Assembly: GCA_002841695.1 (NCBI GenBank)
Contig: PHAN01000002.1
Span: 90,807-154,806, forward strand
Origin: Elusimicrobia bacterium HGW-Elusimicrobia-1
GTDB lineage: Bacteria; Elusimicrobiota; Endomicrobiia; PHAN01
Length of the DNA stretch: 64,000 nt
Reading direction: 5' to 3'
The translations under genes and the position numbers were made by a program. The notes beneath the pieces are model-generated. The model was not told the DNA's origin and did not search any database. It was given only the letters and a program-made list of their open reading frames with translations. Shown here in pieces: positions 12,216-49,326 of the stretch (position 1 is its first letter; each line of letters starts with the position of its first letter).

Positions 12216-12257
12216 AGTGGTCAGTGGATAGTGGTTAGTAAATAAAACGGATAATAT

Positions 12258-13250
12258 ATGAGAAAATTGTGTCTTTCGACTAGTGTTTCGACGGCAACTC
12301 GCGGACGAGGACGGCCCCTGCGACGGATTGCCCTTGTCCTTGCCTTTACTATCCACTATACACTGACCACTAACCACTCTCTACACGCCGCCGGCACGAC
12401 ATCCGCGACTTTTCTTAAACTCGGTGTCGGGGCGAGACCGGTGGGGATGGCCTCGGCGTTCGCAGGCGTGGCCGACGACGTCAACTCCGTCGCATGGAAC
12501 CCTGCGGGGCTCGCCTCAGTCGACGCGAAAGAATTTTCGTTTATGCATCTTGAACATTTTCAGGACGTGCGCTACGATTCGCTGTGCTATGCTCATCCTA
12601 TGAAAAAAACGGTCGTCGCATTCGGCTTTGGCTATCTGTATACCGACGAGATAACAAGGACTTTCATAGACGACGATGTTTATGCGGGTTTTCGCGCGCA
12701 GGGAGATTACCGGCTCCAGGATAGGACGTTTTTTGTTGCGGCGGCAAGACGAATCTCCGATGATAAGGCCGTCGGAGCGCTCGTCAGGTGGCTTTCGGAG
12801 AGGATAGAAGATAATGAAGCGACGGGGCTCGCCGCCGACGTCGGATATCTTCATCTCGTGACGGACCGTCTCGCGTTCGGTTTGTCCGTCCAGAATATCG
12901 GCGGGACGATAAGATTCATCGCGGCCGACGAAATGCTGCCGCTGACTTTTCGCGCGGGCTTCGGATATGACGTTGTCGCCGGAAAACTCAAACTCGCGCT
13001 CGACTTCGTCAAGCCCGTCGACTATCAACTTTCGATCAATCTCGGCGCCGAGTACAGGGCGTTTGACGCGCTCGCCGTCAGAGGCGGATGGAGCTTCAAA
13101 GATTTGTTCTACGACGACCGGCTTAACGGAACATCCGGCGCGGCTCTGGGGATGGGGTTTTCTTTTCACAATTATTCTCTTGACTACGCTTTCGCGCCTT
13201 ATGGAGAGCTCGGTTATTCTCACAGAATATCGTTCGGGGGAAAGTTTTGA
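12258..13250 (+). CDS. Beta-barrel outer-membrane protein, PorV/PorQ- or PorP/SprF-like
   Basis: N-terminal motif LKLGVGARPVGMASAFAGVADDVNSVAWNPAGLA; alternating beta-strand-like pattern; C-terminal ...ISFGGKF (terminal Phe). Confidence 0.6.
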   Translation: MRKLCLSTSVSTATRGRGRPLRRIALVLAFTIHYTLTTNHSLHAAGTTSATFLKLGVGARPVGMASAFAGVADDVNSVAWNPAGLASVDAKEFSFMHLEHFQDVRYDSLCYAHPMKKTVVAFGFGYLYTDEITRTFIDDDVYAGFRAQGDYRLQDRTFFVAAARRISDDKAVGALVRWLSERIEDNEATGLAADVGYLHLVTDRLAFGLSVQNIGGTIRFIAADEMLPLTFRAGFGYDVVAGKLKLALDFVKPVDYQLSINLGAEYRAFDALAVRGGWSFKDLFYDDRLNGTSGAALGMGFSFHNYSLDYAFAPYGELGYSHRISFGGKF

Positions 13251-13254
13251 AAAA

Positions 13255-13425
13255 GCAGGGTTTAGAAAGACAGGGTTTAGGGCATAGGGTCTAGGGTTTA
13301 GTAAAATGAATAAAAAACAGAGTATAAAAAAGACAGGGTTTAGGGTTCAGGGTTTAGGGGTTAGGTTTTTTTTCTTTTTTCTTTTTTCTATTTTCTATCC
13401 CCTAACCCATAGACCCTATACCCTG
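13255..13425. repeat. Leader palindrome P3 built from GGGTTTAGGG-type units; contains start codon and signal-peptide coding region of 13306..15414
   Basis: cagggtttagggcatagggtctagggtttag ... cagggtttagggttcagggtttaggggttagg ... ctatcccctaacccatagaccctataccctg; near-identical copy at 22629-22772. Confidence 0.75.
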
Positions 13426-15414: not shown

Positions 15415-15437
15415 CCGTGTGTTAATCGGATAACAAA

Positions 15438-15620
15438 TTGAGTCAATTGAAAAACCCTTATCACGTCATTCCCGCGAAAGCGGGAATCCAGAGTTTCAGT
15501 CGTAGTATGGATTCGTCCCCGAATGTCTTTATCGGGGATAACAACATTCGGGAATGACCCCCGATAAAAACGTTCGAGGGCAGGCATACGGGAAAAAGGT
15601 TGGTTTTTCAATTGACTCAA
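15438..15620. mobile_element. MITE-like element with terminal inverted repeats and nested internal palindrome
   Basis: TIRs ttgagtcaattgaaaaacc / ggtttttcaattgactcaa; internal gtcattcccgcgaaagcgggaatcc ... cgggaatgac. Confidence 0.7.
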
Positions 15621-15660
15621 ATTAAAAGGTGAAAATATTTACGGTGGCTGGCTCGATAAA

Positions 15661-20267: not shown

Positions 20268-20274
20268 AAAAAGG

Positions 20275-20332
20275 ATGTAGCGGTGGGATTGCCATCCCAC
20301 AAATTCGGCGAATAGCAATTCGCCCGCTACAT
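20275..20332. repeat. Palindromic intergenic element P6 (TGTAGCGG...CCGCTACA enclosing two hairpins)
   Basis: gatgtagcggtgggattgccatcccac...ggcgaatagcaattcgcccgctacat; related copies at 21196-21253 and 39231-39288. Confidence 0.7.
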
Positions 20333-20352
20333 TATTTCAACGGAGGAAAAAA

Positions 20353-21195: not shown

Positions 21196-21253
21196 ATGTA
21201 GCGCGAGGATTTATCCTCGCTAATAAAAAAGCGAACTTAAAAGTTCGCGCTAC
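21196..21253. repeat. Palindromic intergenic element P6-related
   Basis: atgtagcgcgaggatttatcctcgc...gcgaacttaaaagttcgcgctaca. Confidence 0.6.
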
Positions 21254-21277
21254 AAATCGTAAAAGACCGGAGGGAAA

Positions 21278-22628: not shown

Positions 22629-22772
22629 TTAGGGTCTAGGGTTTAGTAAAATGAATAAAAATATAGAAAAGACAGGGTTTAGAAAGGCAGGGTTTAGGGT
22701 TCAGGGTTTAGGGGTTAGGATTTTTGTTTTAATTTTTTTCTATACCCTAACCCCTAAACCCCATGCCCTGCT
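22629..22772. repeat. Leader palindrome P3 (second copy), overlapping start of 22651..23760
   Basis: gttagggtctagggtttagtaaaATG...cagggtttagggttcagggtttaggggttagg...ctataccctaacccctaaaccccatgccctg. Confidence 0.75.
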
Positions 22773-26338: not shown

Positions 26339-28363
26339 ATGAAAAAGAAAAAAAATATCGCGTTCGCGAACAAGAATCATATGATCATCGCCTCGGCGGT
26401 TTTTGTAGCGCTTCTTGCGGTTTCTTCCGCCGCCGGTCCTTTGGCGCCGAAAGCCGTTCAGGGCGGCGTGGAATTCGCTTACGAAGCCGCCCGCGACGCC
26501 AAAAAGATTGCCGTGGCCGGTGAGTTTAATTCATGGAACCATGAAAAAAAATTTCTAAAGTACGACCCCGTCCGCGGACTCTGGACGACGGTTGTTGAGC
26601 TTGGCGAGGGAAGACACGAATATAAATTTGTCGTCGACGGAACGTGGCAGGAGGGCGCCAATCTCGTCGCCGAAGTGAAAAAGAAAGACGGACGGCTTGT
26701 TGTTGAGGAGCCCGCCTCCGCGCCCAATACGCCCTACTCGGCAAAGATAAATTTCTCGGGCAAGTTCGTCGCCGAACTCGGAGCGCAGTCCCGCCAACAG
26801 CGGGACGACTTCTCTTCCATGCCGCCCGTCAATCACGCGGACTTCGACTGGAATATAACCGCCTCGAAAGACGCCTCGGGCTTCGCGCGGCTTGAATATG
26901 ACGGCGACAAAACCTCGGGCAAACTCCTATTTAAACAGGGCCGGATAAGTTTCGCGCCGACGGGTTTCGAGACGTCGATGTATTACAAGCAGAAAGCGAT
27001 TCAGTTCGACGACCCTCTGCGCGCGACAGACAGGGCCGTGACGCTGAAATACGACGCCGTCGAGTTCTTCGATGAAACCAATCCGCATAAGGCGTTCGGT
27101 CTCTGGGAGCAGGCCGTCGCCGTAAAAACGGATTTTCTCGGCGGGGCCTTTTCCGCGTTTTATTCGGACATGCTCCGTCCGGCGACGTACTTTCACACTC
27201 TTGAAGACAACAGCGGACTTCGTTATGCGCGGAGTTTCAAATCCATCCCGTTGAAAATCGCTTTTACGACGAGGCGCACTCGCGGCGGATGGTGGCCGTG
27301 GGCGAACAGCGACAACAACTGGTTTCCCGATCCCGAAAAGCCGAACGGCTACTCATGGGACGCCGCGGCCAGAGGAAGCGTTGCGACCTGGTATAACGGA
27401 TATCTCAACGAAGATTTCATAGGCGTTGACGGAAAATTCGACTTTCTGCCCGGTGTCGCCCTGTTCGGTGAAACGGCGTCGGTAAAGAAAGAATTGAAAT
27501 CGCAAAAGATATCGGGGGGCAGCGCGCACGAAAAGACGTGGACCATCGAAAACGGCGCCGAGAGTATTTACGGCGTAAAATACTCGCGCGGAAAGATACT
27601 CTCGCTTCAGGCCTCGGCGTCAAGCCGGAACACAACTTTCACCCCGCCGCTTTATGCGGGCGAAACCTTCGCCGCCACCGGCTCCGGTTTTTCTTTGGCC
27701 GCGCGTCTGCGCGCCGGATCTTTCACTTTAGCGGCGGCGGGCTCGTCGCGAAAAAACTCGCGGATAGAAAAAATACTCCCGCTCGACATACATCCCTACG
27801 CGCGGCCTCTCGTCTATCAAGGTCTATTTCCGATGGAAGCCGCGTCCGTCGGATTTCTCGTCCATGCCGTCGAAGAGGAAAATGCCGTTATAAGCGCCGC
27901 GGAATATTCCGCTCCCGCGTTTTCCGTCGGAGCGAAAAGCAGAATATCTTCGCTTAAACTCTTGCCGCGATCCTACGCCGGCGGAATCTGGAATGTCAAT
28001 CCGTTCATCGCCGCGCCCGACGAAATCACGCTTTCCGAGTCGGCGCTCGATGCCGCCGTCAAAATTTGGCCGGATATTACGGTCGAGTCCGCGCTCAGAT
28101 TGTTCGCGTGGGACGATAAAAACGAAGGCGGCTTGAAAGCATACTCGGCGCTTTTTCTGGCGCTCAAATACGACTTCTCGAAAAATTCATACGTGCGGCT
28201 CGGTTGGGGGCTCGACCCCGAGGACACCGACGACGATATTCTCGCGGGATTTGACGCGCGGGAAAGCTTTTTATATAATCTGCGCGAAGCGTCGATTCTT
28301 GAAGCCGCGCGGACGCTTGAGTCGCTTCGGAGAATTTCCGTGCGTATGTTCGTGAGATTTTAA
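26339..28363 (+). CDS. Fusion of N-terminal CBM48 (AMPK-beta glycogen-binding type) domain to a predicted outer-membrane beta-barrel
   Basis: SD ACGGAG; signal peptide; CBM48 motif KKIAVAGEFNSWNHE...GRHEYKFVVDGTWQEGANLVA; 500-aa C-terminal region ending ...RMFVRF. Confidence 0.6.
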   Translation: MKKKKNIAFANKNHMIIASAVFVALLAVSSAAGPLAPKAVQGGVEFAYEAARDAKKIAVAGEFNSWNHEKKFLKYDPVRGLWTTVVELGEGRHEYKFVVDGTWQEGANLVAEVKKKDGRLVVEEPASAPNTPYSAKINFSGKFVAELGAQSRQQRDDFSSMPPVNHADFDWNITASKDASGFARLEYDGDKTSGKLLFKQGRISFAPTGFETSMYYKQKAIQFDDPLRATDRAVTLKYDAVEFFDETNPHKAFGLWEQAVAVKTDFLGGAFSAFYSDMLRPATYFHTLEDNSGLRYARSFKSIPLKIAFTTRRTRGGWWPWANSDNNWFPDPEKPNGYSWDAAARGSVATWYNGYLNEDFIGVDGKFDFLPGVALFGETASVKKELKSQKISGGSAHEKTWTIENGAESIYGVKYSRGKILSLQASASSRNTTFTPPLYAGETFAATGSGFSLAARLRAGSFTLAAAGSSRKNSRIEKILPLDIHPYARPLVYQGLFPMEAASVGFLVHAVEEENAVISAAEYSAPAFSVGAKSRISSLKLLPRSYAGGIWNVNPFIAAPDEITLSESALDAAVKIWPDITVESALRLFAWDDKNEGGLKAYSALFLALKYDFSKNSYVRLGWGLDPEDTDDDILAGFDARESFLYNLREASILEAARTLESLRRISVRMFVRF

Positions 28364-28367
28364 CGAT

Positions 28368-28796
28368 ATGGAAAAATATTCTGCGACAGACCGGATACAA
28401 TCGCGTCGGGCCGGCATAATTCCGGTCGCGGCGACGTTCTTCCTTGCACTCGCCGTATTTTCCGGCTGCGCCACGTTCAACATTATCCGCGACCGTATAG
28501 AGTCGCCCGTAATTGACGGCGCTAAGGTTGTTTTTTATTACGACTCCGATTCCGCTAAGAGCGTCTCGGTGGCCGGTGAGTTCAATGGATGGGAATATCG
28601 TCCCGAACAGCCGCGCGCGATAGTGATGAAAAGAAACGAAAAGGGGGGCGTCTGGCAGGCGTCGTCCGAGATATCTCCGGGCCGATATCAATATAAAATA
28701 GTGATAGATTATCAAACGTGGATTACCGATCCATATAACACCAACACAGTCGATGACGGAACCGGCAATCTCAACTCGCTTCTCGTCGTAAAATAG
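28368..28796 (+). CDS. Small lipoprotein with single CBM48-like domain
   Basis: Lipobox-like LALAVFSGC; SVSVAGEFNGWEY...GRYQYKIVIDYQTWITDPYNTNTVDDGTGNLNS. Confidence 0.65.
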   Translation: MEKYSATDRIQSRRAGIIPVAATFFLALAVFSGCATFNIIRDRIESPVIDGAKVVFYYDSDSAKSVSVAGEFNGWEYRPEQPRAIVMKRNEKGGVWQASSEISPGRYQYKIVIDYQTWITDPYNTNTVDDGTGNLNSLLVVK

Positions 28797-28842: not shown

Positions 28843-29859
28843 ATGAAACGCAGATTTGTGGTTGCGCTGGTTTGCGCTCTGACGGCGGCATTCGCCGTTT
28901 CTTCAGCCGGAGCGAAACTGAGGAAAGTCGGTTCGGCCGAGAGCGGCAAATCCGTCGAATGCGCTACGCGCGTTACCGGCGCGGGCGTCGAGTTCGTTTA
29001 CGAAAACCCCTCGGCGAAAAACGTCTTCGTGGCCGGTTCTTTCAACGACTGGAACTCTTCGCGCGACGCTCTTTCGAAAGATAAAAAGGGTGTTTGGCGC
29101 GCGACGCTGCCGTTGAAAACGGGAACGCATCAGTACAAGTTCGTCGTCGACGGCAACTGGATGGCAGATCCTTCCAATCCTCAAACCTCCGACGACGGCT
29201 TAGGCGGGAAAAACTCGGCTGTGGAAATAAAATCTGCGGCAGATGGAAAACCCGCCCCCGCAACCGCGGCGCCCGGCGCAGGCGGGCCGAAAGTTACGGG
29301 CGAGGGCGTTAGATTTGTCTATAAAAACCCCGCGGCGAAAAACGTCTTCGCGGCGGGCGAGTTCAACGCATGGAACGCGCAGGCCGATCCGCTCATAAGG
29401 CAGAAAGACGGAACGTGGCTGCTCGTCAAGAAAATCCCCCCCGGAAGATACAATTATAAGTTCATCGTCGACGGACAGTGGCTCAATGATCCCGTCAATA
29501 CCGCAACCTCCGACGACGGTTACGGCGGAAAGAACTCGGTTCTGGAAGTAGTCGCAGCCGCCGCGCCGTCGCACAAACTGTCGGCCGCGACGAGACAGAC
29601 CAAGACGGGGATAGAGTTCGTTTACGAAAATGCATCCGCCAAAAGCGTCGCAGTTGCGGGCAGTTTCAATAACTGGAGCGCCTCGTCGCACCGTCTCGAA
29701 AAGGATAAGTCGGGCATCTGGAAGACATCGGTTCCTCTGGGTAAAGGCAAATATCAGTATAAGTTTGTCGTCGACGGCGAATGGAAAGAGGATCCGTCGA
29801 ACTCCCAAAACTCCGAAGACGGCCTCGGCGGGAAAAACTCAGTCATCGAGGTTCGCTGA
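28843..29859 (+). CDS. Secreted protein consisting of three tandem CBM48-like glycogen/starch-binding domains
   Basis: Three internal repeats of VEFVYENPSAKNVFVAGSFNDWN...HQYKFVVDGNWMADPSNPQTSDDGLGGKNSAVEI (second and third copies at ~aa 150 and ~aa 250). Confidence 0.75.
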   Translation: MKRRFVVALVCALTAAFAVSSAGAKLRKVGSAESGKSVECATRVTGAGVEFVYENPSAKNVFVAGSFNDWNSSRDALSKDKKGVWRATLPLKTGTHQYKFVVDGNWMADPSNPQTSDDGLGGKNSAVEIKSAADGKPAPATAAPGAGGPKVTGEGVRFVYKNPAAKNVFAAGEFNAWNAQADPLIRQKDGTWLLVKKIPPGRYNYKFIVDGQWLNDPVNTATSDDGYGGKNSVLEVVAAAAPSHKLSAATRQTKTGIEFVYENASAKSVAVAGSFNNWSASSHRLEKDKSGIWKTSVPLGKGKYQYKFVVDGEWKEDPSNSQNSEDGLGGKNSVIEVR

Positions 29860-29901
29860 TATAAAAGAAGGGAGAAGTTTAAGAAGTAAGAGGCAAGAAG
29901 T

Positions 29902-30253
29902 GAGACCGTTGAAAAAGTTCACCGGATGTCACCCTGAACGAAGTGAAGGGTCTCGTTGTCCGTAGGAAGGCGAGATTCTTCCCAAGTTTTCAACTTGGTC
30001 AGAATGACAAAATAGAGGTTTTTCAACGGTCTCAAGTAAGAAACAAGAATTGTCTTTATCTTGTCTCTTACTTCTCGCCTCTTGCTTCTTATTATGAGAC
30101 CGTTAAAAAAGTCCCCTTGGTCGTCATTACGAGGAGGTCGCCGTGGCGACCGACGAAGCAATCTCGTTTTTCAATCAAAATGTGAGATTGCCGCGCCCCG
30201 CCACACAACGGCGGGGCTCGCAATGACAAATTACGGAGTTTTTCAACAATCTC
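29902..30253. mobile_element. Two adjacent MITE-like elements (gagaccgttgaaaaag ... tttttcaacggtctc TIR family)
   Basis: Element A 29902-30033 and element B 30096-30253, each bounded by inverted repeats; flanking agaagtaagaggcaagaag arms also inverted (29881 vs 30058). Confidence 0.65.
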
Positions 30254-30301
30254 GGTATCTTGCTTTTTTTCTCTTTTTTTGGGGGCAAGGGTGGGGAATT
30301 T

Positions 30302-32470
30302 TCAGAAAATGACTTCGACGGAAATTTCGTCGCCGGGCGCGACACGCTCGGCGTTTACCCGCGCGAAGTTAAAGCGGCTTTCAAGCGTTTCGCCGAATAT
30401 CTTGTTTGTCGTCGAGAACTCGGTTTTCTTCCCTTCGACGAGAACTTTCCTGGCTTTGCGCTTCCCTCCAAAAACCAGAAAACTGATTTCCTGCGTTTCA
30501 GGCGCCCCGTCATAAGAGCCGCCCTCCGCCGCCGATAACTTTATCAAGACCCTGCCGCCGCGCGAGCGCGCAATAACGCGTCTTTTAAGATACGCGCCGT
30601 TGTCGCAGGCGTTTGTGACGCCGTCGTCTTCGTAGTAGTCAAAAAACGTTTCGCCGCGCGACGGAAAAACGAGAAATTCAATATTTTTCGGCACGCCGAG
30701 CCGCCCGGCCGGCGCGGTCGACGGAATTATCGAGCCCTCCCGGGCGAAGAGCGCGATTTTGTCGATGGCGACGTCGATATGGCGCGAGCGTTTTCCTTTT
30801 ATTATCTCGCCGTCCTCAAGTGGTATCCACGTGCCTTCGGGGAAATATGTCATTCTCGTGGAAACCCTGCCCGGCGAGTAAGCGGGCGCGGCCATAAGCG
30901 AAGCGCCGATGAGGTACTGCTCCCTGTAATCGTAGCAGTTTGCGTCCCGCGGATACTCGACGTAAAGCCCGCGGAAAGGCGGCACTCCCGTTTCGTGGCA
31001 TTCGCGCGCCAAAGAGTAAAGATAAGGATTCAGCGCGTATCTCGCGCGGACGTATTTTTTGAAGATAGAAACCGCCTCTTCGGAATAATTCCAGGCGTCG
31101 CGGGACGCGCCCGACGAATGTGTGCGCAAAACAGGAGAAAAACATCCGAACTCTACCCATCTGATAAAAAGTTCCTCGTCTATATTTTTTCCCAGAAACC
31201 CGCCGATATCGTGCGACCAGTAAGCCGCGCCTATGTTCCCGCCCTGATGCGTGAATGCAATCTGGCGCTTTATCGTCTCAAAAGTCGAATATGTATCGCC
31301 GGAGAATTGTACCGGATATTTGTGGGAGCCGATACCGCCCCATCGTGAAAGTATCATCGCTCTGCGGCCGTCGCGGGCATTGGCGGCGGCTTCGTAGTAA
31401 AACCTGTTGAGCCACATCTGAGAGTGCAAGTCCATTATCCCGCCTGAAGCGCCCCAGCCGTCCACCCACCAGAAGTCGATTCCTTCGTCGAGAATTTTCG
31501 TGAATATCTTTTCCGACCACGCGCGCACATAGCGGTCGTCGTTCCACTGAACGCGGAAATCGCTTATATCGGGCAGGACTTTTTTTATTTGGGCGCGGCA
31601 GGGGTCGTCAGGGGGAAGCTCGTCCGAAACGCCGTAGCCGGGGTGGTCGTTGAGGCAGCATTTCACTCCGAGTTTTTTTAGATCCGAGATGAACCGCGCG
31701 GGATCGGGAAAGAACTCGGAGTTCCACTCGTAGCCGTTCCATCCGCATTTTCGCCAGTCGGTGTCTATGACGAAGACGTCCAGAGGTATGCCGAGTTCGC
31801 GGAATTTGTCGACGACGCCGAGGATATCATCGTGGCGGAACTTGTGCCAGCGCGAGTACCAGTAGCCGAGCGCCCATCGGGGTATCATCGGGATTTTCCC
31901 GAATAGTCCGATAAAATCGGCGAAGGCCTTTTTGTAGTCGGTTCCGCAGGCGAAGAAATACCAATCCTGAAAGTCGCTCGACGAGCGCTTTTTTATCCAT
32001 CCGGTTTTTTCGTCGCGCAGAAAATCGCAGTGGTTGCGGTAGACGAAGTAGCCGTTTTTCGAGACGAGGCCCGGCGTGAAGCTCTCGTAAATCTTGCCCG
32101 ACGGATATTTGTAAAGGTCGATGTGCGCGCCGCCGAGGTTTTCGGTGTCTTCGCCCCCCGGTTCGAATACACTCTCGCCCGAGAGCGCGCCGAAGACGCG
32201 GATTTTGAGGTTGCCTATGTCGAAGCATTTTCCGTCGGGAAGGAGTTCCAGCGCGAAGCGGCGGGTTTTGAGGGCGAACAGGCCGTTGGTTACAACCGAG
32301 TGGGGGACTTCCCCGCTGAAATTCGGTTCGAGTATCAGCGGATTTTCGTCGTCGAAAACTCCCTCCGCGGTGTATTCAAGCCGCAGCAGCGAGTCGGAGT
32401 AAACTGTGACGCGGTAGTTTTTGTCGACGAGATAAACCACCGGCGCCGAAGATATTTTGTGTATTTTCAT
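30302..32470 (-). CDS. GH31-family alpha-glucosidase-like enzyme, cytoplasmic (no signal peptide)
   Basis: 722 aa; motifs PRWALGYWYSRW, FWWVDGWG, SHDIGGF resembling GH31 signatures. Confidence 0.7.
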   Translation of the reverse strand: MKIHKISSAPVVYLVDKNYRVTVYSDSLLRLEYTAEGVFDDENPLILEPNFSGEVPHSVVTNGLFALKTRRFALELLPDGKCFDIGNLKIRVFGALSGESVFEPGGEDTENLGGAHIDLYKYPSGKIYESFTPGLVSKNGYFVYRNHCDFLRDEKTGWIKKRSSSDFQDWYFFACGTDYKKAFADFIGLFGKIPMIPRWALGYWYSRWHKFRHDDILGVVDKFRELGIPLDVFVIDTDWRKCGWNGYEWNSEFFPDPARFISDLKKLGVKCCLNDHPGYGVSDELPPDDPCRAQIKKVLPDISDFRVQWNDDRYVRAWSEKIFTKILDEGIDFWWVDGWGASGGIMDLHSQMWLNRFYYEAAANARDGRRAMILSRWGGIGSHKYPVQFSGDTYSTFETIKRQIAFTHQGGNIGAAYWSHDIGGFLGKNIDEELFIRWVEFGCFSPVLRTHSSGASRDAWNYSEEAVSIFKKYVRARYALNPYLYSLARECHETGVPPFRGLYVEYPRDANCYDYREQYLIGASLMAAPAYSPGRVSTRMTYFPEGTWIPLEDGEIIKGKRSRHIDVAIDKIALFAREGSIIPSTAPAGRLGVPKNIEFLVFPSRGETFFDYYEDDGVTNACDNGAYLKRRVIARSRGGRVLIKLSAAEGGSYDGAPETQEISFLVFGGKRKARKVLVEGKKTEFSTTNKIFGETLESRFNFARVNAERVAPGDEISVEVIF

Positions 32471-32487
32471 GTGTGTGCCCTTATAAC

Positions 32488-32618
32488 GAGACCGTTGAAA
32501 AAGTATTTTTTACTATTTTGTCATTCCCGAACGTTTTAATCGGGAATCCATTACTGACGGAAACTCTGGATTCCCGCTTTCGCGGGAATGACATAATTAA
32601 GGGTTTTTCAACAATCTC
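32488..32618. mobile_element. MITE-like element, same TIR family, with internal gtcattcccg...cgggaatgac palindrome
   Basis: gagaccgttgaaaaag ... tgtcattcccgaacg...cgcgggaatgacat ... tttttcaacaatctc. Confidence 0.65.
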
Positions 32619-32644
32619 ATTATGCGAATCTCAATAAGTATTTT

Positions 32645-35083
32645 TCAGCGCGCAACGAGTATCATCGCCGATCCTGCCGGGATGTCCACGGACAACTTCG
32701 ATTTTTTTACTTTCATTAAGCGTGAGGGCTTTGCGACCCTGATTTTTTTTACGACGCGTCCGCCGTCGGCGCCGGGGGCGTCGAAGAGTTCGTAGCGCTT
32801 CTCGCCGAGGATGTCGAAGTACTCCGTTCCGTCGGGCGCGCCCGCGTCGAACGTGACGGCGCGGGAGGCGGCGGAATTGTTGACCGCGACAAAAATCCTG
32901 TCCGCGCCTCTTCTCCTGGCAAAGACGATAATTTCATTTTCGTCGTCGGCGAGCACACTCTCGTAAACGCCGGTATGGAGTTCCTCGCGCGTGTTATGTA
33001 TCGCGGAGAGTTTCCTGTAGTGCTCGTAAATATCGCGCATAAATATTTTATCTTTATCGTCGAACGCAAGGTCTTTCCATACCATAGGCTCGCGGCAGAA
33101 CGGGTCGTCCGAACTCCACATCCCGGCTTCGGAGCCGTACCATATCATCGGCGCACCGGGCAGCGCAAACTGCACAGCCGTCACTTTTTTGAGTTTTTCG
33201 TAGACGTCTTTCGACGGCCGCCCCTGCTTGTACGACGGGTTATAGTCGCCGGTGTCCGACGGATTGAGGCGGTTACCCTTGTCGTAGTGGCGCCCCGGAT
33301 TAGAAAGCATCGAGACGGCGCGGTCGGTGTCGTGGCTGTCGAAGAGATTCTGCTGGACGAAGTTGACCTGATAAGGATAAAGCGCCAAAAGCCGTTTTAT
33401 CTCCGAATCAAACTTCGAGGGCTTTATCCAGCCGTTGGAGAGCCAGTTGAGCGTCGTCTTGATAAAAGGATAGTTCATCTGCGCGTGAAAAAGTTCGGGT
33501 TTCAGCCATTCGGGGGATTCGTCCCATAATTCGCCCGAGATATAGGCGTCGGGGTTGATGGACTTGACAAGCCGCGACCACTCGACCCAGAAAGGCATCT
33601 TGACATTCTCGGGAACGTCTAATCGCCAGCCGTCTATACCGTCGGAAGGATCGCCGTCGCCGTTGGGATCCATCCAGCGGCGGGTGATGTCGAAGATGTG
33701 TTTTTTTGGGCCGGCGACGAGACCGTTTTCGTCTTCCCTGAATTCCGGCAGCCCGCCGAATCCCGCCCAACCCTCGTAGCCGCGGCCAGTGTGCGCTTCG
33801 CGCATGAATAATTCCCAGTCGGTGACACTGAACCAGTCGGCGTATTTCGATTTCCTGCCTTTTTTCTTGACGTCGTTAAATGCCCAGAAGTTATCGCCCG
33901 AGTGATTGAATACTCCGTCGATGATGACGCGAAAGCCCATCGCCTTGGCTTTTTTAAGAAAATCCAGAAAGAGCATGTCGGTCTTTGTCCATTTCCACGT
34001 GGCGGGATCATCCGTCTCGCCCCTGAGTTCGGCGATGTCGCCCTTGAATCCGAGATTGTCGTCTATGTGGCGATAATCCGAGGTGTTGTATTTGTGGTGC
34101 GATTCGGCTTTGAATACCGGCGTAAGATACAGCGCGGTCACGCCCATTTCTTTGAGATAATCAAGTTTTTCGACGAGTCCCTGAATGTCTCCGCCGAAGC
34201 GCCGTCCCCAGACGAAATCGTAGAAGCCGCCCTGCTCCGAGGGATGTTTCCTGGAAAAATCCCATGTCCACGGAAGCGAGCCGTCGGGATTGTTCGCGGG
34301 GTCGCCATCGCGGAAGCGCTCGGGCATTACCTGATACCAGACCGCGCCTTTCGCCCAATCGGGCGTCGCGAACTTTATTTTTGTCGAGGCAGTGAAAACC
34401 GTCCCGGCGGAGGGGTAAATTATCTTGGTGTTTCCGTCGGCCAGGGCAAACGAATATTTGAGATTTTGCGCGTCGCGGGGAATCTCGGCGAAAGCGCTCC
34501 AGTAGTCGAAGCCGAGATAGGTCTTTGTTTTTTCCATCGCAAAACGTTTGCCGCCGCCCGAGACGACTTCGGCGTTTTCGACGTCTCCGGCGAGCGCGCG
34601 AAGTTTTATCTCGGCAAGACCCTTCGTTATTACGTTAAAATATTCTATCTTGCGAGGATCGTGGCGCAGCGCCGCCACCGCGATGTTGTTGAGAATAGGC
34701 GCCCCGTATGACGTTCCCGTCTCACCGACGGCAATGCCCGAATTGAAACCTCCGAAGCCGTCTTCCTTTTTTAGGGCCGCGTCGGCCTTGGGGTCCTCCA
34801 TCCAGCGGTCGCCGTTGACGACGAGTTTGTATAAGTGGAGGCCTTCTTTGAGTTCGAGCTTCGCCTCGAATTTCCCGTCGGGCCGCCGGCGCATCAGGTC
34901 TTTTGAGGAATTCCATTGGTTAAACGATCCGACTACCGCCACGGAATTTACCGCCTCTCCGGGCCGGGGTTCATATAGAAAAGAGATTTTCTGCGTCGGC
35001 GCAATCACCGCCGACAGAGCCGTCGTCATCAACAGCGCGACGGAGAAAACCGCCGCGAAGAAACATTTTTTCGATGAAAACAT
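32645..35083 (-). CDS. Secreted GH13 alpha-amylase/neopullulanase-like enzyme with N-terminal CBM48-like domain
   Basis: Signal peptide MFSSKKCFFAAVFSVALLMTTALSA; CBM48 VAVVGSFNQWNSS...LHLYKLVVNGDRW; GH13 regions VIIDGVFNHSGD, GWRLDVPENV, YISGELWD, FDSHDTDR. Confidence 0.85.
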   Translation of the reverse strand: MFSSKKCFFAAVFSVALLMTTALSAVIAPTQKISFLYEPRPGEAVNSVAVVGSFNQWNSSKDLMRRRPDGKFEAKLELKEGLHLYKLVVNGDRWMEDPKADAALKKEDGFGGFNSGIAVGETGTSYGAPILNNIAVAALRHDPRKIEYFNVITKGLAEIKLRALAGDVENAEVVSGGGKRFAMEKTKTYLGFDYWSAFAEIPRDAQNLKYSFALADGNTKIIYPSAGTVFTASTKIKFATPDWAKGAVWYQVMPERFRDGDPANNPDGSLPWTWDFSRKHPSEQGGFYDFVWGRRFGGDIQGLVEKLDYLKEMGVTALYLTPVFKAESHHKYNTSDYRHIDDNLGFKGDIAELRGETDDPATWKWTKTDMLFLDFLKKAKAMGFRVIIDGVFNHSGDNFWAFNDVKKKGRKSKYADWFSVTDWELFMREAHTGRGYEGWAGFGGLPEFREDENGLVAGPKKHIFDITRRWMDPNGDGDPSDGIDGWRLDVPENVKMPFWVEWSRLVKSINPDAYISGELWDESPEWLKPELFHAQMNYPFIKTTLNWLSNGWIKPSKFDSEIKRLLALYPYQVNFVQQNLFDSHDTDRAVSMLSNPGRHYDKGNRLNPSDTGDYNPSYKQGRPSKDVYEKLKKVTAVQFALPGAPMIWYGSEAGMWSSDDPFCREPMVWKDLAFDDKDKIFMRDIYEHYRKLSAIHNTREELHTGVYESVLADDENEIIVFARRRGADRIFVAVNNSAASRAVTFDAGAPDGTEYFDILGEKRYELFDAPGADGGRVVKKIRVAKPSRLMKVKKSKLSVDIPAGSAMILVAR

Positions 35084-35226
35084 TGTGCCTCCATTACGTC
35101 ACAGAGAGATGGATGAAAAGGCGGCATCGTTCAATTCCGCCGCGAAGCCATTATACAAAAATGACCCTCGCAGGCAAAAATCGGTAAAACGTTTTAACAC
35201 AGGCGGTATCCGCCGTCCGCGCAATT

Positions 35227-35255
35227 TTTGGAAAGCGCCTTTTCATTATGTATAA
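35227..35255 (+). promoter_or_regulatory. Near-consensus sigma70-type promoter (TTGGAA-N17-TATAAT) upstream of the ABC ATPase gene
   Basis: ttggaa at 35227-35232, tataat at 35250-35255, 17-nt spacer, ~34 nt upstream of ATG 35289. Confidence 0.45.
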
Positions 35256-35288
35256 TTCGGCTGACAACCTTGGATAACCGGAGGAAAT

Positions 35289-36465: not shown

Positions 36466-36545
36466 GTAGTGTAGCCCTTTATGGGCGTTTCTTTATGGGC
36501 GTTTCTTTATGGGCGTTTATTGACGGGGACAAGCCCCTACACTAC
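36466..36545. repeat. REP-family palindrome plus 3 tandem copies of ctttatgggcgttt
   Basis: gtagtgtagccctttatgggcgtttctttatgggcgtttctttatgggcgtttattgacggggacaagcccctacactac. Confidence 0.7.
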
Positions 36546-36572
36546 ACCAAAATAGGAAGTAAGAGGCAAAAT

Positions 36573-38960
36573 ATGAACCCAAAAACAAAAACATTTTTGG
36601 CGGCTGCTTTTTTTTGTGTATCGACGATATCCGGTTTATTCCCGCCGCCCGCGCACGCGCGAGGGCTTGAAACGCCCGTCATCGACGTCGAGGCGGGTTC
36701 CGTCGTCGAGATGCCGCTTGATTTGTTCGTCGGCGCGCCCGTCGCGTCGGGGCCGGCGGTTACCAATATATCCGGCGCGAAGTCCGTCCGCGTTTCCGTC
36801 GCGCCAAAAAGATCCGCCCTCGTCATTTCGGCGCCGGCGGGTTTTTCGGGCTTCGACGCTTTCGTCGTCTCGGCTTCCTCCGACGGCAAAACGACTTTTT
36901 CGCGCGCCGTGGCGGTGAGGGTGACAGCGCCGCGCCGGACTGTTTTGCGCTATAAACCGGCAAAATCCGTCAAATCCGTCGCCGCGGCGGGGGACTTTAA
37001 TTCGTGGAATCCTTCCGCCTCGCCCATGACGGGGCCCGACAAGAAAGGTTTCTACTCCATTGAGCTTAAACTCGCCGCCGGAGAGTACAATTATAAGTTC
37101 GTCGTCGACGGACAATGGCTCGCCGACACGGCCAACCCCGCATCCGTCCCCGACGGCTTCGGCGGAACGAACTCCGTTGTTTTCGTAGGCGCGCCGCCTA
37201 AGTCCGGCCGATGGCACAGCGTTGTCGTCGACGATACAACCGCGCGCGTCGCGTATATCGCCGGCAAAGCCGCGCCGTCTTTCGACGCCGCATCGCTGTT
37301 GCTCGTCTCCGGCGATAAAATCCTCGCCCGCGGAGGCGACTATTCCGTTGATGAAACGCGCGGCGAAATAGCGATTAAACTCGCATCCCTCGGTTCGCCG
37401 CCCGCCGACGTCATGATATTGGCCCGCGATAAATCGGGTGCGATACTGAGCGGCTTCGTCGCCCGCTTTCCGTCGGACGACGGATGGAACGGGCGGCTGA
37501 TGTACTTCGCCTTCACCGACAGATTTCACAGCGGCTCGGCCGCCAATGACCGGCCATCCGGCGACCCTGACGTTGCGCCGGCGGCGGATTTTCGCGGTGG
37601 CGATTTTGCCGGCATCACAGAAAAACTCCGCGACGGCTATTTTGAGCGGCTCGGCGTGGGAGCGCTGTGGATATCGCCTCACTTTAAGAATCCCGACCGG
37701 CCATATATCGACGCTCTTCCTCCGCATAGAAAGTTTACCGGCTATCACGGCTACTGGCCGGTTTCTTTCGACGAGACCGACCCGAGATTCGGGACTATTG
37801 AAGAACTCCGCGAACTCGTGGCCGCGGCCCATAAGCGCGGCATCAAAGTCATTCTCGATATGGTGTTAAACCACGCCCACGAGGAAAATCCCGTCTACAA
37901 GAAAAATCCCGGATGGTTTTCAAAAATTACTCTGGCCGACGGCCGCAAAAATATCCGTCTTTTCGACGAGCGTCCGCTCGACACGTGGTTCGACGACTTC
38001 CTGCCCGACTTTGCCTACGAAGGTAATCCCGCCGCCGTCGAATATATGGTCTCAAACTGCCTCGATTGGATCAAGAAAACAAACTGCGACGGCTTCCGCC
38101 TCGACGCCGTCAAGCACGTGCCTATGGTATTCTGGACGGAACTCCGCCGCCGCATCCGCCGCGACATCGAAATCCCGCGCGGAGAAATGTTTTACCTCGT
38201 AGGAGAAACCATCTCCGGACGCGAAAAAATAATGGAATACGTCGGCTTTGATAAACTCGACGGACAGTTTGATTTTCCGATATACTGGGCGATAAAAGAC
38301 GTCTTCGCCTGGCAAACTAAAGGTCTCGACTATCTCGAACGCGAGAGCGGGAAATCAGCTTTGCAGTACGTCGGATCCATTCCGAGCCCGCTTTTGGGCA
38401 ATCACGACTTTGCCCGTTTCAGCGCTTTCGCCGACGGCGCGATACCTCCCGGTTCCAACGAAAAAGCGCGCTCGTGGGACAATCGCCCCGAAGTCAAAAA
38501 CCGCTCTACCTATCAAAAACTCCGTATGGCTTTCGCTTTTCTTCTCTCTGAGCCGGGCGTTCCCATGATTTATTACGGCGACGAAATAGGCCTCTCGGGC
38601 GCGGGCGACCCCGACAACCGCCGAATGATGAAGTTCGACAAACTCTCAGGCGACGAGCGCGAAACCCTCCAATATGTCGGCGCGCTGGCCGCGTTCCGCC
38701 GTGCCTCCAAGGCGCTCCGTTTTGGCGAGCGCCACACGCTTGTGTCGTCGGAAAACACCCTCGTTTACCTCAAAAATTATTTCGGCGAAACTGCCGTCGT
38801 TGCAATCAACCGTTCGCCCCGCCCCGCCGAAGTCAGCGTTGAACTTCCGCCGTTTTTCAAAAACCCCGCGTCCTTTGAAGACGTAGTAAGCGGCAAAAAA
38901 ATCCAACTCAAAAAGTTGCGCATCCCCCCGATGAGCGCCGTCGTCCTTCGCGGCATCTGA
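36573..38960 (+). CDS. Secreted GH13 alpha-amylase-family enzyme with CBM48-like domain
   Basis: Start at ATG 36573 (after SD aggaagtaagagg) preferred over track start 36495; signal peptide MNPKTKTFLAAAFFCVSTISG; CBM48 AAAGDFNSWNP...GEYNYKFVVDGQW; GH13 regions VILDMVLNHAHE, GFRLDAVKHVP, FYLVGETISG, LGNHDFARF. Confidence 0.85.
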   Translation: MNPKTKTFLAAAFFCVSTISGLFPPPAHARGLETPVIDVEAGSVVEMPLDLFVGAPVASGPAVTNISGAKSVRVSVAPKRSALVISAPAGFSGFDAFVVSASSDGKTTFSRAVAVRVTAPRRTVLRYKPAKSVKSVAAAGDFNSWNPSASPMTGPDKKGFYSIELKLAAGEYNYKFVVDGQWLADTANPASVPDGFGGTNSVVFVGAPPKSGRWHSVVVDDTTARVAYIAGKAAPSFDAASLLLVSGDKILARGGDYSVDETRGEIAIKLASLGSPPADVMILARDKSGAILSGFVARFPSDDGWNGRLMYFAFTDRFHSGSAANDRPSGDPDVAPAADFRGGDFAGITEKLRDGYFERLGVGALWISPHFKNPDRPYIDALPPHRKFTGYHGYWPVSFDETDPRFGTIEELRELVAAAHKRGIKVILDMVLNHAHEENPVYKKNPGWFSKITLADGRKNIRLFDERPLDTWFDDFLPDFAYEGNPAAVEYMVSNCLDWIKKTNCDGFRLDAVKHVPMVFWTELRRRIRRDIEIPRGEMFYLVGETISGREKIMEYVGFDKLDGQFDFPIYWAIKDVFAWQTKGLDYLERESGKSALQYVGSIPSPLLGNHDFARFSAFADGAIPPGSNEKARSWDNRPEVKNRSTYQKLRMAFAFLLSEPGVPMIYYGDEIGLSGAGDPDNRRMMKFDKLSGDERETLQYVGALAAFRRASKALRFGERHTLVSSENTLVYLKNYFGETAVVAINRSPRPAEVSVELPPFFKNPASFEDVVSGKKIQLKKLRIPPMSAVVLRGI

Positions 38961-38984: not shown

Positions 38985-39092
38985 ATTGTTATTGCGAGCC
39001 CCGAAGGGGCGTGGCAATCTCCCTATACGCGAGATTGTTTTGTCAGTAGGGACAGGTCGCGACCTGTCCCTACAAAATCCTCGCAATGACAA
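38985..39092. terminator. Nested palindromic structure downstream of GH13 gene, including a perfect 28-bp palindrome
   Basis: cattgttattgcgag ... gtagggacaggtcgcgacctgtccctac ... ctcgcaatgacaacaatg. Confidence 0.45.
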
Positions 39093-39230
39093 CAATGCTC
39101 TCGCCCGCCGTTTTTCGTCGCCCCCTATCCCACAAAAACCTTGACTTTTCGCCGCGAATCTGCTATAAATACCGTATTAAACGCGAAGTGTGATGTTCGA
39201 TTGATGTTTTGCTGCGATATGTGTAGCGGC

Positions 39231-39288
39231 GGGATTGCTATCCCGCAATTATGGCGCATAGCAATGCGCCCGCTACATAATCATACAT
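39231..39288. repeat. Palindromic intergenic element P6
   Basis: tgtagcggcgggattgctatcccgcaa...ggcgcatagcaatgcgcccgctaca. Confidence 0.7.
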
Positions 39289-39321
39289 GAAAGCAATCTC
39301 ATATAAAGCGAGGATATGTAA

Positions 39322-39947: not shown

Positions 39948-40027
39948 AAATACCTCCCCCTTTGGAAAAGGAGGATTGAGGGGGAAATCGGCCTCCCCCT
40001 TTTTAAAGGGGGAAAGAGGGGGATTTT
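39948..40027. repeat. P1 palindromic element
   Basis: aaatacctcccccttttggaaaaggaggattgagggggaaatcggcctccccctttttaaagggggaaagagggggatttt. Confidence 0.7.
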
Positions 40028-40033
40028 AATTTT

Positions 40034-40383
40034 ATGATTTTGCCATACAGTCCCAAGTTAAAATCATATTCAAGAGAATTAAGAAAGAATATGACGGATG
40101 CCGAGAAAAAAATATGGGGAAAACTCCGACGGAAGCAATTAAAGAAATGTCAATTTTACAGACAAAGAGTGATAGGTGAATATATAGTGGATTTTTTTGT
40201 TCCTCCGCCAAATTGGTCATCGAAATCGATGGCGGCCAACACTATACGAAAGATGGTATGGGCAGAGATAAGATCCGTGATGATTACATTAAAAATCTCG
40301 GTGTCAAGATATTAAGATTTACGGACAGAGAAGTTTTACAAAATATTGATTTAGTGGTTGGGCAAATATATGAAAATTTGTAA
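40034..40383 (+). pseudogene. DUF559-family endonuclease-like gene disrupted by a frameshift in a T7 homopolymer (or a homopolymer sequencing error)
   Basis: N-terminal LRKNMTDAEKKIWGKLRRKQL...FYRQRVIGEYIVDFF in frame 1; shifting +1 after the T run gives CSSAKLVIEIDGGQHY...GVKILRFTDREVLQNIDLVVGQIYENL ending at 40383; AT-rich. Confidence 0.7.
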
Positions 40384-40462
40384 AAATCCCCCTGTGTCCC
40401 CCTTTAAAAAAGGGGGATTAAGACATTTCGTCGAGCTCCCCTTTTAAAAAGGGGGAATAGAA
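40383..40462. repeat. P1 palindromic element
   Basis: aaaaatccccctgtgtccccctttaaaaaagggggattaag...gctccccttttaaaaagggggaat. Confidence 0.7.
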
Positions 40463-40564
40463 AGCCGCACCCCAAAGATTCTTGTGATTAACGACGAGAC
40501 GGAAGCACGGAAGATTAAGAAGATATTATTCTGATAGGAACGAACAGTCGGTAACTTTGGGTTA

Positions 40565-47803: not shown

Positions 47804-47912
47804 AGGGCAGTGGTTAGTGGCGAGTGGTTAGTGGATAGAAAGGGCAGTGGTTAGTTTTTTGTTTTTACTATCCACTATTCACTAACCACTCGCCACTATA
47901 CACTAGCCACTT
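47804..47912. repeat. P2 hairpin (agtggttagtggatag arms around T-rich loop), terminator-like, downstream of giant gene
   Basis: gggcagtggttagtggcgagtggttagtggatagaaagggcagtggttagttttttgtttttactatccactattcactaaccactcgccactata. Confidence 0.7.
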
Positions 47913-47932
47913 ACTTTTGATTGGAGGAAAAA

Positions 47933-48883: not shown

Positions 48884-48925
48884 CAGTGGTTAGTGAAATA
48901 AAAAAAAGTGGTTAGTGGATAGTAA
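48884..48925. repeat. P2 arm copy
   Basis: gcagtggttagtgaaataaaaaaaagtggttagtggatagt. Confidence 0.6.
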
Positions 48926-48948
48926 AAATGAAAAAGGGGGGGAATAGT

Positions 48949-49326
48949 ATGATAGGAGTTAGGAGTTATAAAGATTTAATAATCTGGCGAAAAAGTATGG
49001 AACTTGTAAAAATTGTGTACAAAGCGACCAGTAGTTTCCCGCAAAAAGAATTATTCGGATTGACAAATCAGATGAGAAGGGCAGCCGTATCGATACCTTC
49101 AAATATAGCGGAAGGGCAGGCCAGAAACCATACGAAAGAATTTGTGCAGTTTCTGTATCAGGCGTTGGGCTCCCTGGCGGAACTTGATACACAGGCAATA
49201 ATAGCCAAGGAACTGGGTTATCTAAAAGCAGTGGATAGTGGTGAGTGGATAGAAAGACAAACTGCCGAACTTCAAAAGATGACACACGGCCTACTCAAAA
49301 AACTAACCGCTATAGACAGTGGATAG
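48949..49326 (+). CDS. Four-helix-bundle protein (family formerly called 23S rRNA intervening-sequence protein)
   Basis: SYKDLIIWRKSMELVKIVYK...FGLTNQMRRAAVSIPSNIAEGQAR...ELDTQAIIAKELGYL; AT-rich; start at ATG 48949 after GGGGGG SD preferred over 48928. Confidence 0.8.
   Translation: MIGVRSYKDLIIWRKSMELVKIVYKATSSFPQKELFGLTNQMRRAAVSIPSNIAEGQARNHTKEFVQFLYQALGSLAELDTQAIIAKELGYLKAVDSGEWIERQTAELQKMTHGLLKKLTAIDSG

Follow-up and report, generated by a model that had tools for sequence, protein, structure and literature searches.

The locus studied here raises the question of what the short, strongly palindromic repeats at the edges of two glycosidase genes are, and whether they record a rearrangement of those genes. 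It lies in a stretch of 64,000 nucleotides (hereafter the window; positions given without a locus name refer to it) of contig PHAN01000002.1 from Elusimicrobia bacterium HGW-Elusimicrobia-1. An initial annotation, made from the sequence alone, had described MITE-like elements in this stretch (MITE, miniature inverted-repeat transposable element) and had suggested that they mark the boundary of an inverted or inserted block. Four elements, E1-E4, are very probably non-autonomous derivatives (MITEs) of an insertion sequence (IS) of the IS1182 family, and the glycosidase genes retain their ancestral order. Three of the elements have GAGACCGTTGAAAAAG-type inverted ends (E1, E2 and E3), and the fourth (E4) has GAGTCAATTGAAAAACC ends:

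E1, positions 29902-30033, no strand: probable MITE of 132 nt; terminal inverted repeats (TIRs) GAGACCGTTGAAAAAG / GAGACCGTTGAAAAAC (15/16); target-site duplication (TSD) AAGT at 29898-29901 and 30034-30037
E2, positions 30096-30253, no strand: probable MITE of 158 nt; TIRs GAGACCGTTAAAAAAG / GAGATTGTTGAAAAAC (12/16); flanks ATTAT / GGTAT
E3, positions 32488-32618, no strand: probable MITE of 131 nt; TIRs GAGACCGTTGAAAAAG / GAGATTGTTGAAAAAC (13/16); in the GH13-GH31 spacer
E4, positions 15440-15618, no strand: probable MITE of 179 nt; sister TIR type GAGTCAATTGAAAAACC (17/17); TSD AAATT at 15435-15439 and 15619-15623

The elements thus span 131-179 nt with TIRs of 16-17 bp, and E2 stands in tandem to E1, 62 bp apart. 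When GAGACCGTTGAAAAAG was searched at up to three mismatches, six matches were found in the window, forming three pairs, against a shuffle expectation of 0.67; six matches were reached in 0/100 shuffles. The two tandem elements and the third copy at 32488-32618 are therefore present where the initial annotation had placed them, above shuffle chance. Its related element at 15438-15620 is also real, but these limits are too wide because two bases of the AAATT repeat had been counted as TIR on each side; the correct limits are 15440-15618. The size of E1-E4 excludes a transposase within them, and no open reading frame (ORF) of at least 100 amino acids (aa) was found inside any of the four. Each element end can be described as one module, consisting of the TIR (GAGAYYGTTGAAAAAS or its sister GAGTCAATTGAAAAACC), a spacer and an inward hairpin of the form GTC-stem-loop-stem-C, with two such modules mirrored to give the whole element; the end strings of the TIR family can also be written as the pair GAGNNNNTTGAAAAA...TTTTTCAANNNNCTC and as GAGACYGTTGAAAAA. 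The left half of E4 and the reverse complement of the right half of E3 are 88% identical over 52 nt.

A search for TSDs, as the initial annotation had proposed, yielded AAGT at E1 and AAATT at E4 and none at E2 or E3. At E1, the duplication lies within a recognizable older structure:

29880-30091, no strand: pre-existing long hairpin of AAGNAAG-type repeats, with arms at 29880-29901 + 30038-30058 and at 30069-30091

This hairpin is located 3' of a gene with three CBM48 modules (CBM48x3), between convergent genes, and its left arm is split by E1. When E1 and one copy of AAGT are excised in silico, the sequence again forms a hairpin, with 33 bp in the stem, two mismatches and a folding energy of -44.5 kcal/mol, compared with -39.7 kcal/mol if both AAGT copies are kept. 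The insertion of E1 thus hit the left arm of a palindrome that already existed and resembles a terminator; by disrupting it, E1 may have affected its host. For E3, the evidence comes from relatives: in loci L046-L049 (loci retrieved from other assemblies carry L numbers), GH13 and GH31 overlap by 4 bp or lie 0-36 bp apart with no element between them, whereas in the window they are 174 bp apart and enclose E3. Because the orthologous junction is empty in these four relatives, E3 is an insertion, and it now parts two genes that overlap or nearly abut elsewhere. An independent Logan assembly from another sequencing run (L002) covers GH31 and ends inside E2 on one side and inside E3 on the other, which fits the behavior of assemblies at repeats. 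E3 also belongs to a small group of insertions with inverted rather than direct flanks, together with L016 5850-6035 and L120; the flanks in this group are GTTC/GAAC, TAAA/TTTA and ATAAC/ATTAT (4/5), and they could have arisen if an element inserted at the center of a palindrome or if oppositely oriented copies recombined.

The ends of these elements also bound transposase genes. In other assemblies, elements of ~1.6 kb that encode an IS1182 transposase have the same 15-16-bp ends as the MITEs. One of them is L061 5910-7513, which was found as a TIR pair 1.6 kb apart and is a complete IS of 1,604 bp with a TSD of AAATA and a 481-aa ORF. The 7.7-kb contig that carries this IS also holds two MITEs whose 17-nt ends match it; one of these is inserted in a further copy of the repeated target of the IS and again has AAATA as its TSD. 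Homologs of the L061 transposase form a clade of >50 proteins, most of them on contigs of ~1.6 kb that represent the IS assembled alone; the five places fetched for three proteins of this clade all carry the ends. Further full-length copies have the TSDs ACAAG (L116) and CAAAA (L117) or are inserted with TTTA in the loop of a perfect hairpin with an 11-bp stem (L119); L120 is a further copy with palindromic flanks, and L118 is the L116 insertion again, on a contig that begins at the left TIR. A plasmid BLAST search with a Sphingomonas copy of the MITE led to a Sphingomonas aliaeris plasmid with a 447-aa transposase annotated as IS1182 family, whose IS has the ends GAGACTGTTGAAAAAC and GAGACCGTTGAAAAAG and occupies the loop of a GTCACAACC/GGTTGTGAC hairpin, where it is flanked by a GTCC duplication. 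Taken together, GAGACTGTTGAAAAA-type ends (exact or with one mismatch per end) surround transposases of 442-481 aa in L061, L116, L117, L119, L120 and L039. On the IS1182 model NF033551 of NCBIfam (cut-off 270), the three transposases tested reach 362-391 bits, and Pfam matches of these transposases are DUF772, DDE_Tnp_1 and DDE_Tnp_1_6. Related ends are found in named IS1182 members, namely ISCfr1 (GATTCTGTTGAAAAAG), ISBspe1 (CAGGCTGTTGAGAAAG) and an Enterococcus element (CAGACTGTAGACAAAG), with ISBspe1 being flanked by a whole 20-bp hairpin in duplicate. In the literature, ISPse1 of this family has 16-bp inverted repeats (IRs) and a 4-bp direct repeat (DR)(PMC3281130), and Methanosarcina acetivorans harbors IS1182-derived MITEs of 160-169 bp with a 4-bp DR (PMC3852290). 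IS1272, also an IS1182-family member with 16-bp IRs, recognizes stem-loop structures rather than sequences; in the cases studied the stem-loop was replaced without a TSD, and the proposed model also accommodates a duplicated loop or a duplicated entire stem-loop (PMC5678879).

The pattern GAGAYYGTTRAAAAA-N100-130-TTTTTCAACRRTCTC, for which the chance expectation is far below one match, was scanned for in one genome per species. The scan returned 35 loci in species-representative genomes, and 66 more loci were found in JGI metagenomes; the contig of the window was in neither set. Among the 35 loci, the labels of the metagenome-assembled genomes (MAGs) include Clostridia, Omnitrophota, Akkermansiaceae, LCP-89, Gammaproteobacteria, Planctomycetia, Sphingomonas, Endomicrobiia, Elusimicrobia, Calditrichaeota and Magasanikbacteria. 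Viral contigs held no match to the pattern, and a phage vehicle for the elements was rejected on that account. In the pooled set of 110 elements at 95 non-redundant sites, from named MAGs of >10 phyla and from unlabeled metagenome contigs, exact direct repeats of the flanks measured 4 bp at 34 sites, 5 bp at 28, 6-7 bp at nine and 3 bp at nine. A TSD of 4-7 bp was present at 71/95 sites, and one of 3 bp or more at 74/95; by comparison, when left and right flanks were paired across different loci, only ~2% of pairs reached at least 4 bp. Insertion also favors hairpin loops: 23% of the 74 sites with a TSD of at least 3 bp lie in the loop of a perfect hairpin of at least 5 bp, compared with 2.9% of the mismatched-flank controls. 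The initial annotation's term 'MITE-like' is thus well founded, given the TIRs, the lack of coding capacity, the TSDs of E1 and E4, the family-wide TSDs and the IS1182 partners with the same ends.

In some of these loci (L003, L005, L008, L022, L027, L028, L032 and L034), the MITEs almost always lie in the 4-nt loops (TAAA/TTTA) of two adjacent small hairpins that form a repeated, GTAG-headed sequence (...GTAGTTGCCCAATTTATTGGGC..GCCTGATAAATCAGGCAACTAC...). L008 and L027 come from a MAG labeled 'uncultured bacterium', and the other six (L003, L005, L022, L028, L032 and L034) from the Clostridia MAG CSMAG_496. The MITEs of these MAGs appear to target another repeat family, with the result that tandem MITE pairs arise, as with E1 and E2.

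The TIRs identical to those of full-length IS1182 elements, the TSDs and hairpin-loop bias of the family, and the insertions of E1 and E3 suggest a mechanism. An IS1182-family DDE transposase, supplied in trans, would bind both TIRs and insert the element through a staggered cut of 4-5 bp, giving rise to the TSD; it would often choose targets able to form a hairpin or cruciform, as has been reported for IS1182 members. Several observations weigh against this reading. There is no TSD recognizable as a direct flank repeat at either E2 or E3. The interiors of the four window copies are only 50-62% identical to one another, which is not what a recent burst of one master copy would leave; the copies are old or stem from separate sublineages. 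Searches by tblastn with seven transposases found no IS1182 transposase in the window or in the 8-kb neighborhoods of L003-L037, although a cognate transposase would have to exist, or to have existed, in this genome. Finally, the MITE interiors share nothing with the sequenced IS copies beyond ~17 nt. As for the flanks of E2 and E3, these elements may have lost a TSD or, by analogy with the replacement of stem-loops by IS1272, may never have made one; decay and a replacement mode could each explain the missing duplications.

The lack of similarity between the MITE interiors and the IS also bears on how such MITEs arose. Full-length IS copies contain no subterminal hairpins of the kind found in E1-E4, so the internal hairpins do not come from the interior of the IS. 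A classical origin by internal deletion was rejected because the interiors are unlike the IS beyond the ~17 common nucleotides. In our working view, the internal hairpins are structural cargo that keeps the element strongly palindromic. The elements themselves are of a known kind, IS1182-derived MITEs that target stem-loops, in a TIR variant that is widespread; the variant string GAGAYYGTTGAAAAA was not found in the searchable literature. Only their chimeric layout, in which hairpin pairs of a different class sit inside IS1182 ends, is unusual.

These hairpins resemble a group of repeats described in 2025. In Neisseria, the GIY-YIG nuclease SsnA cuts the Neisseria Transformation Sequence (NTS; consensus CGTCATTCCCGCGMAVGCGGGAATCYRG), a motif that encompasses the classical dRS3 repeat, in its single-stranded form, and in many bacteria the ssnA genes are flanked by degenerate relatives of NTS, termed Ssn-related motifs (SRM); GTC upstream and C downstream of the palindrome are critical for cleavage and binding by SsnA (Nat Commun, PMC11893778). 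Each of E1-E4 has a mirrored hairpin pair, and in all eight of these hairpins the stem is preceded by GTC and followed by C:

15464-15491, plus strand: NTS-type hairpin in the left half of E4, CGTCATTCCCGCGAAAGCGGGAATCCAG, 28/28 to the NTS consensus
15509-15558, minus strand: SRM-like hairpin in the right half of E4, GTCATTCCCGAATG...CATTCGGGGACGAATCC
29928-29954, plus strand: SRM-like hairpin in the left half of E1, GTC-ACCCTGAAC-GAA-GTGAAGGGT-CTC
29972-30008, minus strand: SRM-like hairpin in the right half of E1, GTC-ATTCTGACCAAGTT-GAAA-ACTTGGGAAGAAT-CTC
30123-30165, plus strand: SRM-like hairpin in the left half of E2, GTCATTACGAGGAGGTCGCC-GTG-GCGACCGACGAAGCAATCTC, read directly from the sequence
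30184-30227, minus strand: SRM-like hairpin in the right half of E2, GTCATTGCGAGCCCCGCCG...GCGGGGCGCGGCAATCTC
32520-32549, plus strand: SRM-like hairpin in the left half of E3, GTC-ATTCCCGA-ACGTTTTAA-TCGGGAAT-CC
32566-32593, minus strand: NTS-type hairpin in the right half of E3, TGTCATTCCCGCGAAAGCGGGAATCCAG, 27/28 to the NTS consensus

The internal palindrome GTCATTCCCGCG...CGGGAATGAC, which the initial annotation had seen in several elements, is present in E3 and E4, but E1 and E2 follow the same design with stems of their own: those of E1 are ACCCTGA/ATTCTGA and contain tandem G·A pairs, and those of E2 are of the ATTGCGAG type. That annotation had also noted the palindrome at 58755, and GTCATTCCCGCG indeed starts a further hairpin at 58756. 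Taken alone, the 12-mer GTCATTCCCGCG is not enriched at two mismatches (15 matches vs 12.2 expected); the full 28-nt motif cannot be a chance match, and only the full hairpin motif is informative. The SRM regular expression matches the window at 15464-15491 and 32566-32593 and at one further, probably fortuitous, site, with 0.4 matches expected, and the remaining window hairpins fit only the relaxed form GTCAYY-stem-loop-stem-C, having longer loops or stems interrupted by G·A pairs. Judged by sequence, the hairpins clearly belong to the NTS/SRM class. The spacer between TIR and hairpin measures ~10 nt in six of eight window halves and spans 9-16 nt overall, with 16 nt in the left half of E3, the exception being 42 nt in the right half of E4; the nested palindromes begin ~26 nt from each element end. 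Among 97 distinct TIR-bounded elements from all sources, about one-third have such a hairpin in one or both halves, and for most of these the distance from the element end to the start of the GTC is 25-28 nt (range 22-34 among clear cases). With a strict, perfect-stem definition, the density of hairpins inside the MITEs exceeds that of the surrounding 590 kb ~23-fold.

Hairpins of this class also occur in the window outside any TIRs. Inverted doublets are found at 38988-39090, 56182-56273 and 58864-58955, and a long single hairpin at 58756-58821; their stems (ATTGCGAG, AYYCTGAGC and ATTCCCGCG) are of the same three types as those inside E1-E4. The two 92-nt doublets are 89% identical within a 122-nt repeat, and the stand-alone hairpins keep the GTC/C form except for the one at 38988, which starts with GTT.

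The prominence of the hairpins is the basis for the best of the alternative explanations, in which the mobile or functional unit is the inverted NTS/SRM hairpin pair, REPIN-like and spread or maintained by a nuclease of the Ssn-type GIY-YIG kind, with the IS1182 ends being secondary or a mere vehicle. It would make sense of the close match of the E3 and E4 hairpins to the NTS consensus (27/28 and 28/28), of the SsnA-critical GTC and C in every MITE-borne window hairpin, of the stem types shared with the TIR-less doublets, of the roughly one-third of TIR-bounded elements that bear hairpins, usually with GTC at a set distance of 25-28 nt from the end, and of the ~23-fold higher hairpin density inside MITEs. 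However, TSDs and target choice track the boundaries of the TIRs and not those of the hairpins, and some two-thirds of the TIR-bounded elements are without a detectable hairpin, which shows that hairpins are not needed for membership of the TIR family. Nor was a GIY-YIG (ssnA) gene seen: Pfam found none in the few window ORFs checked, a weak test, and neither a motif regular expression nor a tblastn search with a YhbQ-like probe, both weak probes, found one in ~780 kb of fetched loci. Ssn is not known to drive transposition, and the authors of the Ssn study go no further than raising a resemblance to an insertion sequence (PMC11893778). We therefore consider this explanation improbable.

Under an IS1182 origin, a separate matter is whether the mirrored coupling of an IS1182 end, usually at ~10 nt, to an Ssn-type hairpin serves a function, which we hold to be possible but doubtful. 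If it does, vehicles of the DDE-transposon type may disperse NTS-like hairpins across phyla; a copy with 28/28 identity to the Neisseria consensus is located in an Elusimicrobia MAG. The hairpins might also aid the structure-dependent IS1182 transposase, for example through cruciform extrusion that joins the ends or makes new hairpin targets. Either way, a functional coupling would link IS1182 transposition and the Ssn/SRM repeats, which have so far been described separately.

Weaker still is the idea that the elements are not mobile DNA but structured RNAs of the host, or terminator or attenuator modules used in regulation. They are predicted to fold with high stability (-48.8 to -60.2 kcal/mol, z = -6.9 to -8.2), and every copy is intergenic, with E1 and E2 between convergent genes and E3 inside an operon. 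Yet symmetric elements are at issue, and any palindrome of such length yields z-scores of this order. Rfam 15 gave no match at the gathering threshold over the whole window and none at E ≤ 1 over 29850-32660; the lone match of E4, to FtrB, reaches 19 bits against a gathering score of 66, far under the threshold. Moreover, the same ends occur with TSDs in unrelated gene contexts in >10 phyla and also bound transposase genes, and the orthologous operon junctions of relatives are without an element. A regulatory RNA origin is thus very unlikely. A later effect of an inserted element on expression is a different matter: the edge of E3 lies 17 nt upstream of the GH31 start codon and its fold on the operon strand is predicted at -48.8 kcal/mol (z = -6.9), so that E3 would put this structure into the GH13-GH31 transcript and may affect expression of GH31.

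The gene context answers the second part of the question. In JGI data the window belongs to a 397-kb metagenome contig (3300038334, Ga0246094_000067), and its GH13 protein is 100% identical to one from the MAG HGW-Elusimicrobia-1. A 442-bp spacer between the plus-strand triple-CBM48 gene (28843-29859) and the minus-strand GH31 gene (30302-32470) holds E1 and E2, and E3 lies in the 174 bp that separate GH31 from the minus-strand GH13 gene (32645-35083). A promoter and terminator scan of 29700-32800 returned promoter-like matches of only 9/12, and fewer terminator-like sites than in shuffles. Thus, E1 and E2 lie 3' of GH31 and E3 between GH31 and GH13, bracketing GH31 alone, and there is no element at the outer 5' boundary of GH13, in the divergent GH13/malK spacer (35084-35288). 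The initial annotation was correct that GH31 and GH13 are the sole minus-strand genes of the window (the minus-strand ORF at 62288-63784 is the shadow of a plus-strand ORF of >1050 aa that runs past the window end), but not that the elements flank them both, since the two-gene block is not bracketed and E3 lies inside it.

Two structural scenarios were nevertheless weighed: that the elements mark an inversion of the minus-strand block, and that E2-GH31-E3 is a composite transposon that delivered GH31. The latter was suggested by the bracketing of GH31 by E2 and E3 and by ATTAT forming the outer 5 bp on both sides (left of E2 and right of E3), the pattern expected of a composite insertion; however, this match is one AT-rich 5-mer chosen from several flank comparisons. 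In all four relatives (L046-L049, in which GH13 is 65-71% identical), GH31 directly follows GH13 on the same strand with no element in between, and in L047, the one relative that reaches so far, GH13-GH31 faces the same CBM48x3 / CBM48 / AMPK1_CBM run in convergent orientation, as it does in the window. Because order (four relatives) and convergence (L047) are conserved, the arrangement is ancestral, GH31 having been neither delivered nor inverted, and the elements are later insertions into intergenic DNA, not inversion markers. Both the inversion boundary and the composite transposon were therefore rejected, leaving such scenarios with hardly any probability; the synteny comparison that the initial annotation had proposed for its inversion or insertion boundary of the GH31/GH13 block found the orientation conserved, which on that annotation's own terms speaks against the boundary. 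With this false lead removed, the GH13-GH31 starch/maltodextrin genes stand in their ancestral order, and the repeats were inserted later.

An equally slight chance attaches to REP/BIME-type sequences (REPINs) moved by the REP-associated tyrosine transposase (RAYT) of the window (gene at 9080-9538; NCBIfam NF047646, 111.8 bits vs a cut-off of 80), which would fit the REPIN-like layout of inverted hairpin doublets, but the repeats next to that gene (8860-9079) are a different, GTAG-containing 22-bp family, the MITE hairpins begin with GTCA and not GTAG, and to our knowledge REPINs make no TSD and have no 16-bp TIR in common with a DDE insertion sequence.

Comparison with known systems places IS1182-derived MITEs from this locus among familiar relatives while setting them apart in their composition. 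They resemble IS1182 members such as ISPse1 and the ISMac2-derived MITEs of M. acetivorans in having IRs of ~16 bp and DRs of ~4 bp (PMC3281130, PMC3852290), and IS1272 in targeting stem-loops, its flank patterns of replacement, loop duplication and whole-stem-loop duplication all being seen here (PMC5678879); with ISCfr1 they share the TIR core CTGTTGAAAAA. Unlike known IS1182 MITEs, they combine the TIR variant GAGAYYGTTGAAAAA with interiors that are not IS-derived, with paired NTS/SRM-like hairpins and with a distribution over >10 bacterial phyla, and the window holds no cognate transposase. In their hairpins they are like the NTS/dRS3/SRM repeats of Neisseria, with 28/28 and 27/28 identity, the hairpin form, the GTC/C signature, an intergenic location and multiple copies, and like the SRM around ssnA genes in forming inverted pairs (PMC11893778). 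Unlike in Neisseria, however, the pairs are located inside IS1182-type TIRs, in an Elusimicrobia MAG, with no ssnA seen by the weak probes used. With REPIN/RAYT systems they have in common the inverted doublets that form a larger hairpin and the presence of a RAYT gene in the window; they differ by GTCA instead of GTAG heads and by TIRs of the DDE type with TSDs, and the RAYT repeats belong to the other family. The Correia elements, MITEs of Neisseria, offer a further parallel: they are ~100-160 bp long, TIR-bounded, intergenic, strongly palindromic and often co-transcribed with their neighbors, and their host genomes are rich in dRS3/NTS hairpins. By contrast, their TIRs of ~26 bp are of unrelated sequence and their duplication is TA; we know of no link of theirs to IS1182 and of no report that they carry NTS pairs.

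The findings document an IS1182-derived MITE family with very conserved 15-16-bp ends, 4-5-bp duplications and a bias towards hairpin loops in named MAGs of >10 phyla, and extend IS1272-type behavior, known from staphylococci, to many environmental lineages. Hairpins related to NTS and Ssn, described in 2025 mainly from Pseudomonadota, are found to occur in Elusimicrobia inside transposon ends. Recognition of the elements also has value for annotation, as they break assemblies and seed spurious small ORFs.

Other repeats are plentiful in the window. About ten tandem 22-bp repeats (GGRCTTGTCYCCGTAGGCAAAA, with GTAG inside) run straight into the 152-aa ORF at 9080-9538, the REP-associated tyrosine transposase (NF047646; Pfam Y1_Tnp), and 8860-9538 has the appearance of a RAYT accompanied by a REP cluster of its own that has no relation to the MITE hairpins. 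A bipartite GTAGCG...CGCTAC hairpin of ~60 nt is present in three copies (20268-20352, 21196-21277 and 39230-39290), two of them between consecutive genes for ABC transporters; its GTAG head suggests REP sequences. Hairpin repeats of the CCCCCTTTAAAAAGGGGGA type lie at 39952-40460 and also at 7632-7720, 50774-50850 and 58171-58264. They flank a small gene annotated as DUF559 (Vsr-like endonuclease fold; L001 2088-2258, approximately 40384-40554 in the window), and this layout of a small nuclease gene between its own hairpins recalls NTS-ssnA-NTS.

Many intergenic spacers consist of long palindromes built from 7-nt periodic units, with (AGTGGNT)n facing (ANCCACT)n, or of the AGGGTTT type (12216-12394, 47803-48033, 48900-49410, 52045-52176, 56129-56166 and 58708-58746; also 13241-13404 and 22630-22744). 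E1 interrupts a palindrome of this sort, the AAGNAAG hairpin, and one pair of such palindromes brackets a 23S_rRNA_IVP / bAvd-like gene at 48928-49326. Repetition is also found at the protein level: the CBM48/AMPK1_CBM starch-binding module occurs three times in the 338-aa protein encoded at 28843-29859, with a DNA periodicity of 303-321 bp and 72-81% identity, and it recurs in four neighboring genes of the maltodextrin locus (also at 26339-28796 and 36495-38960).

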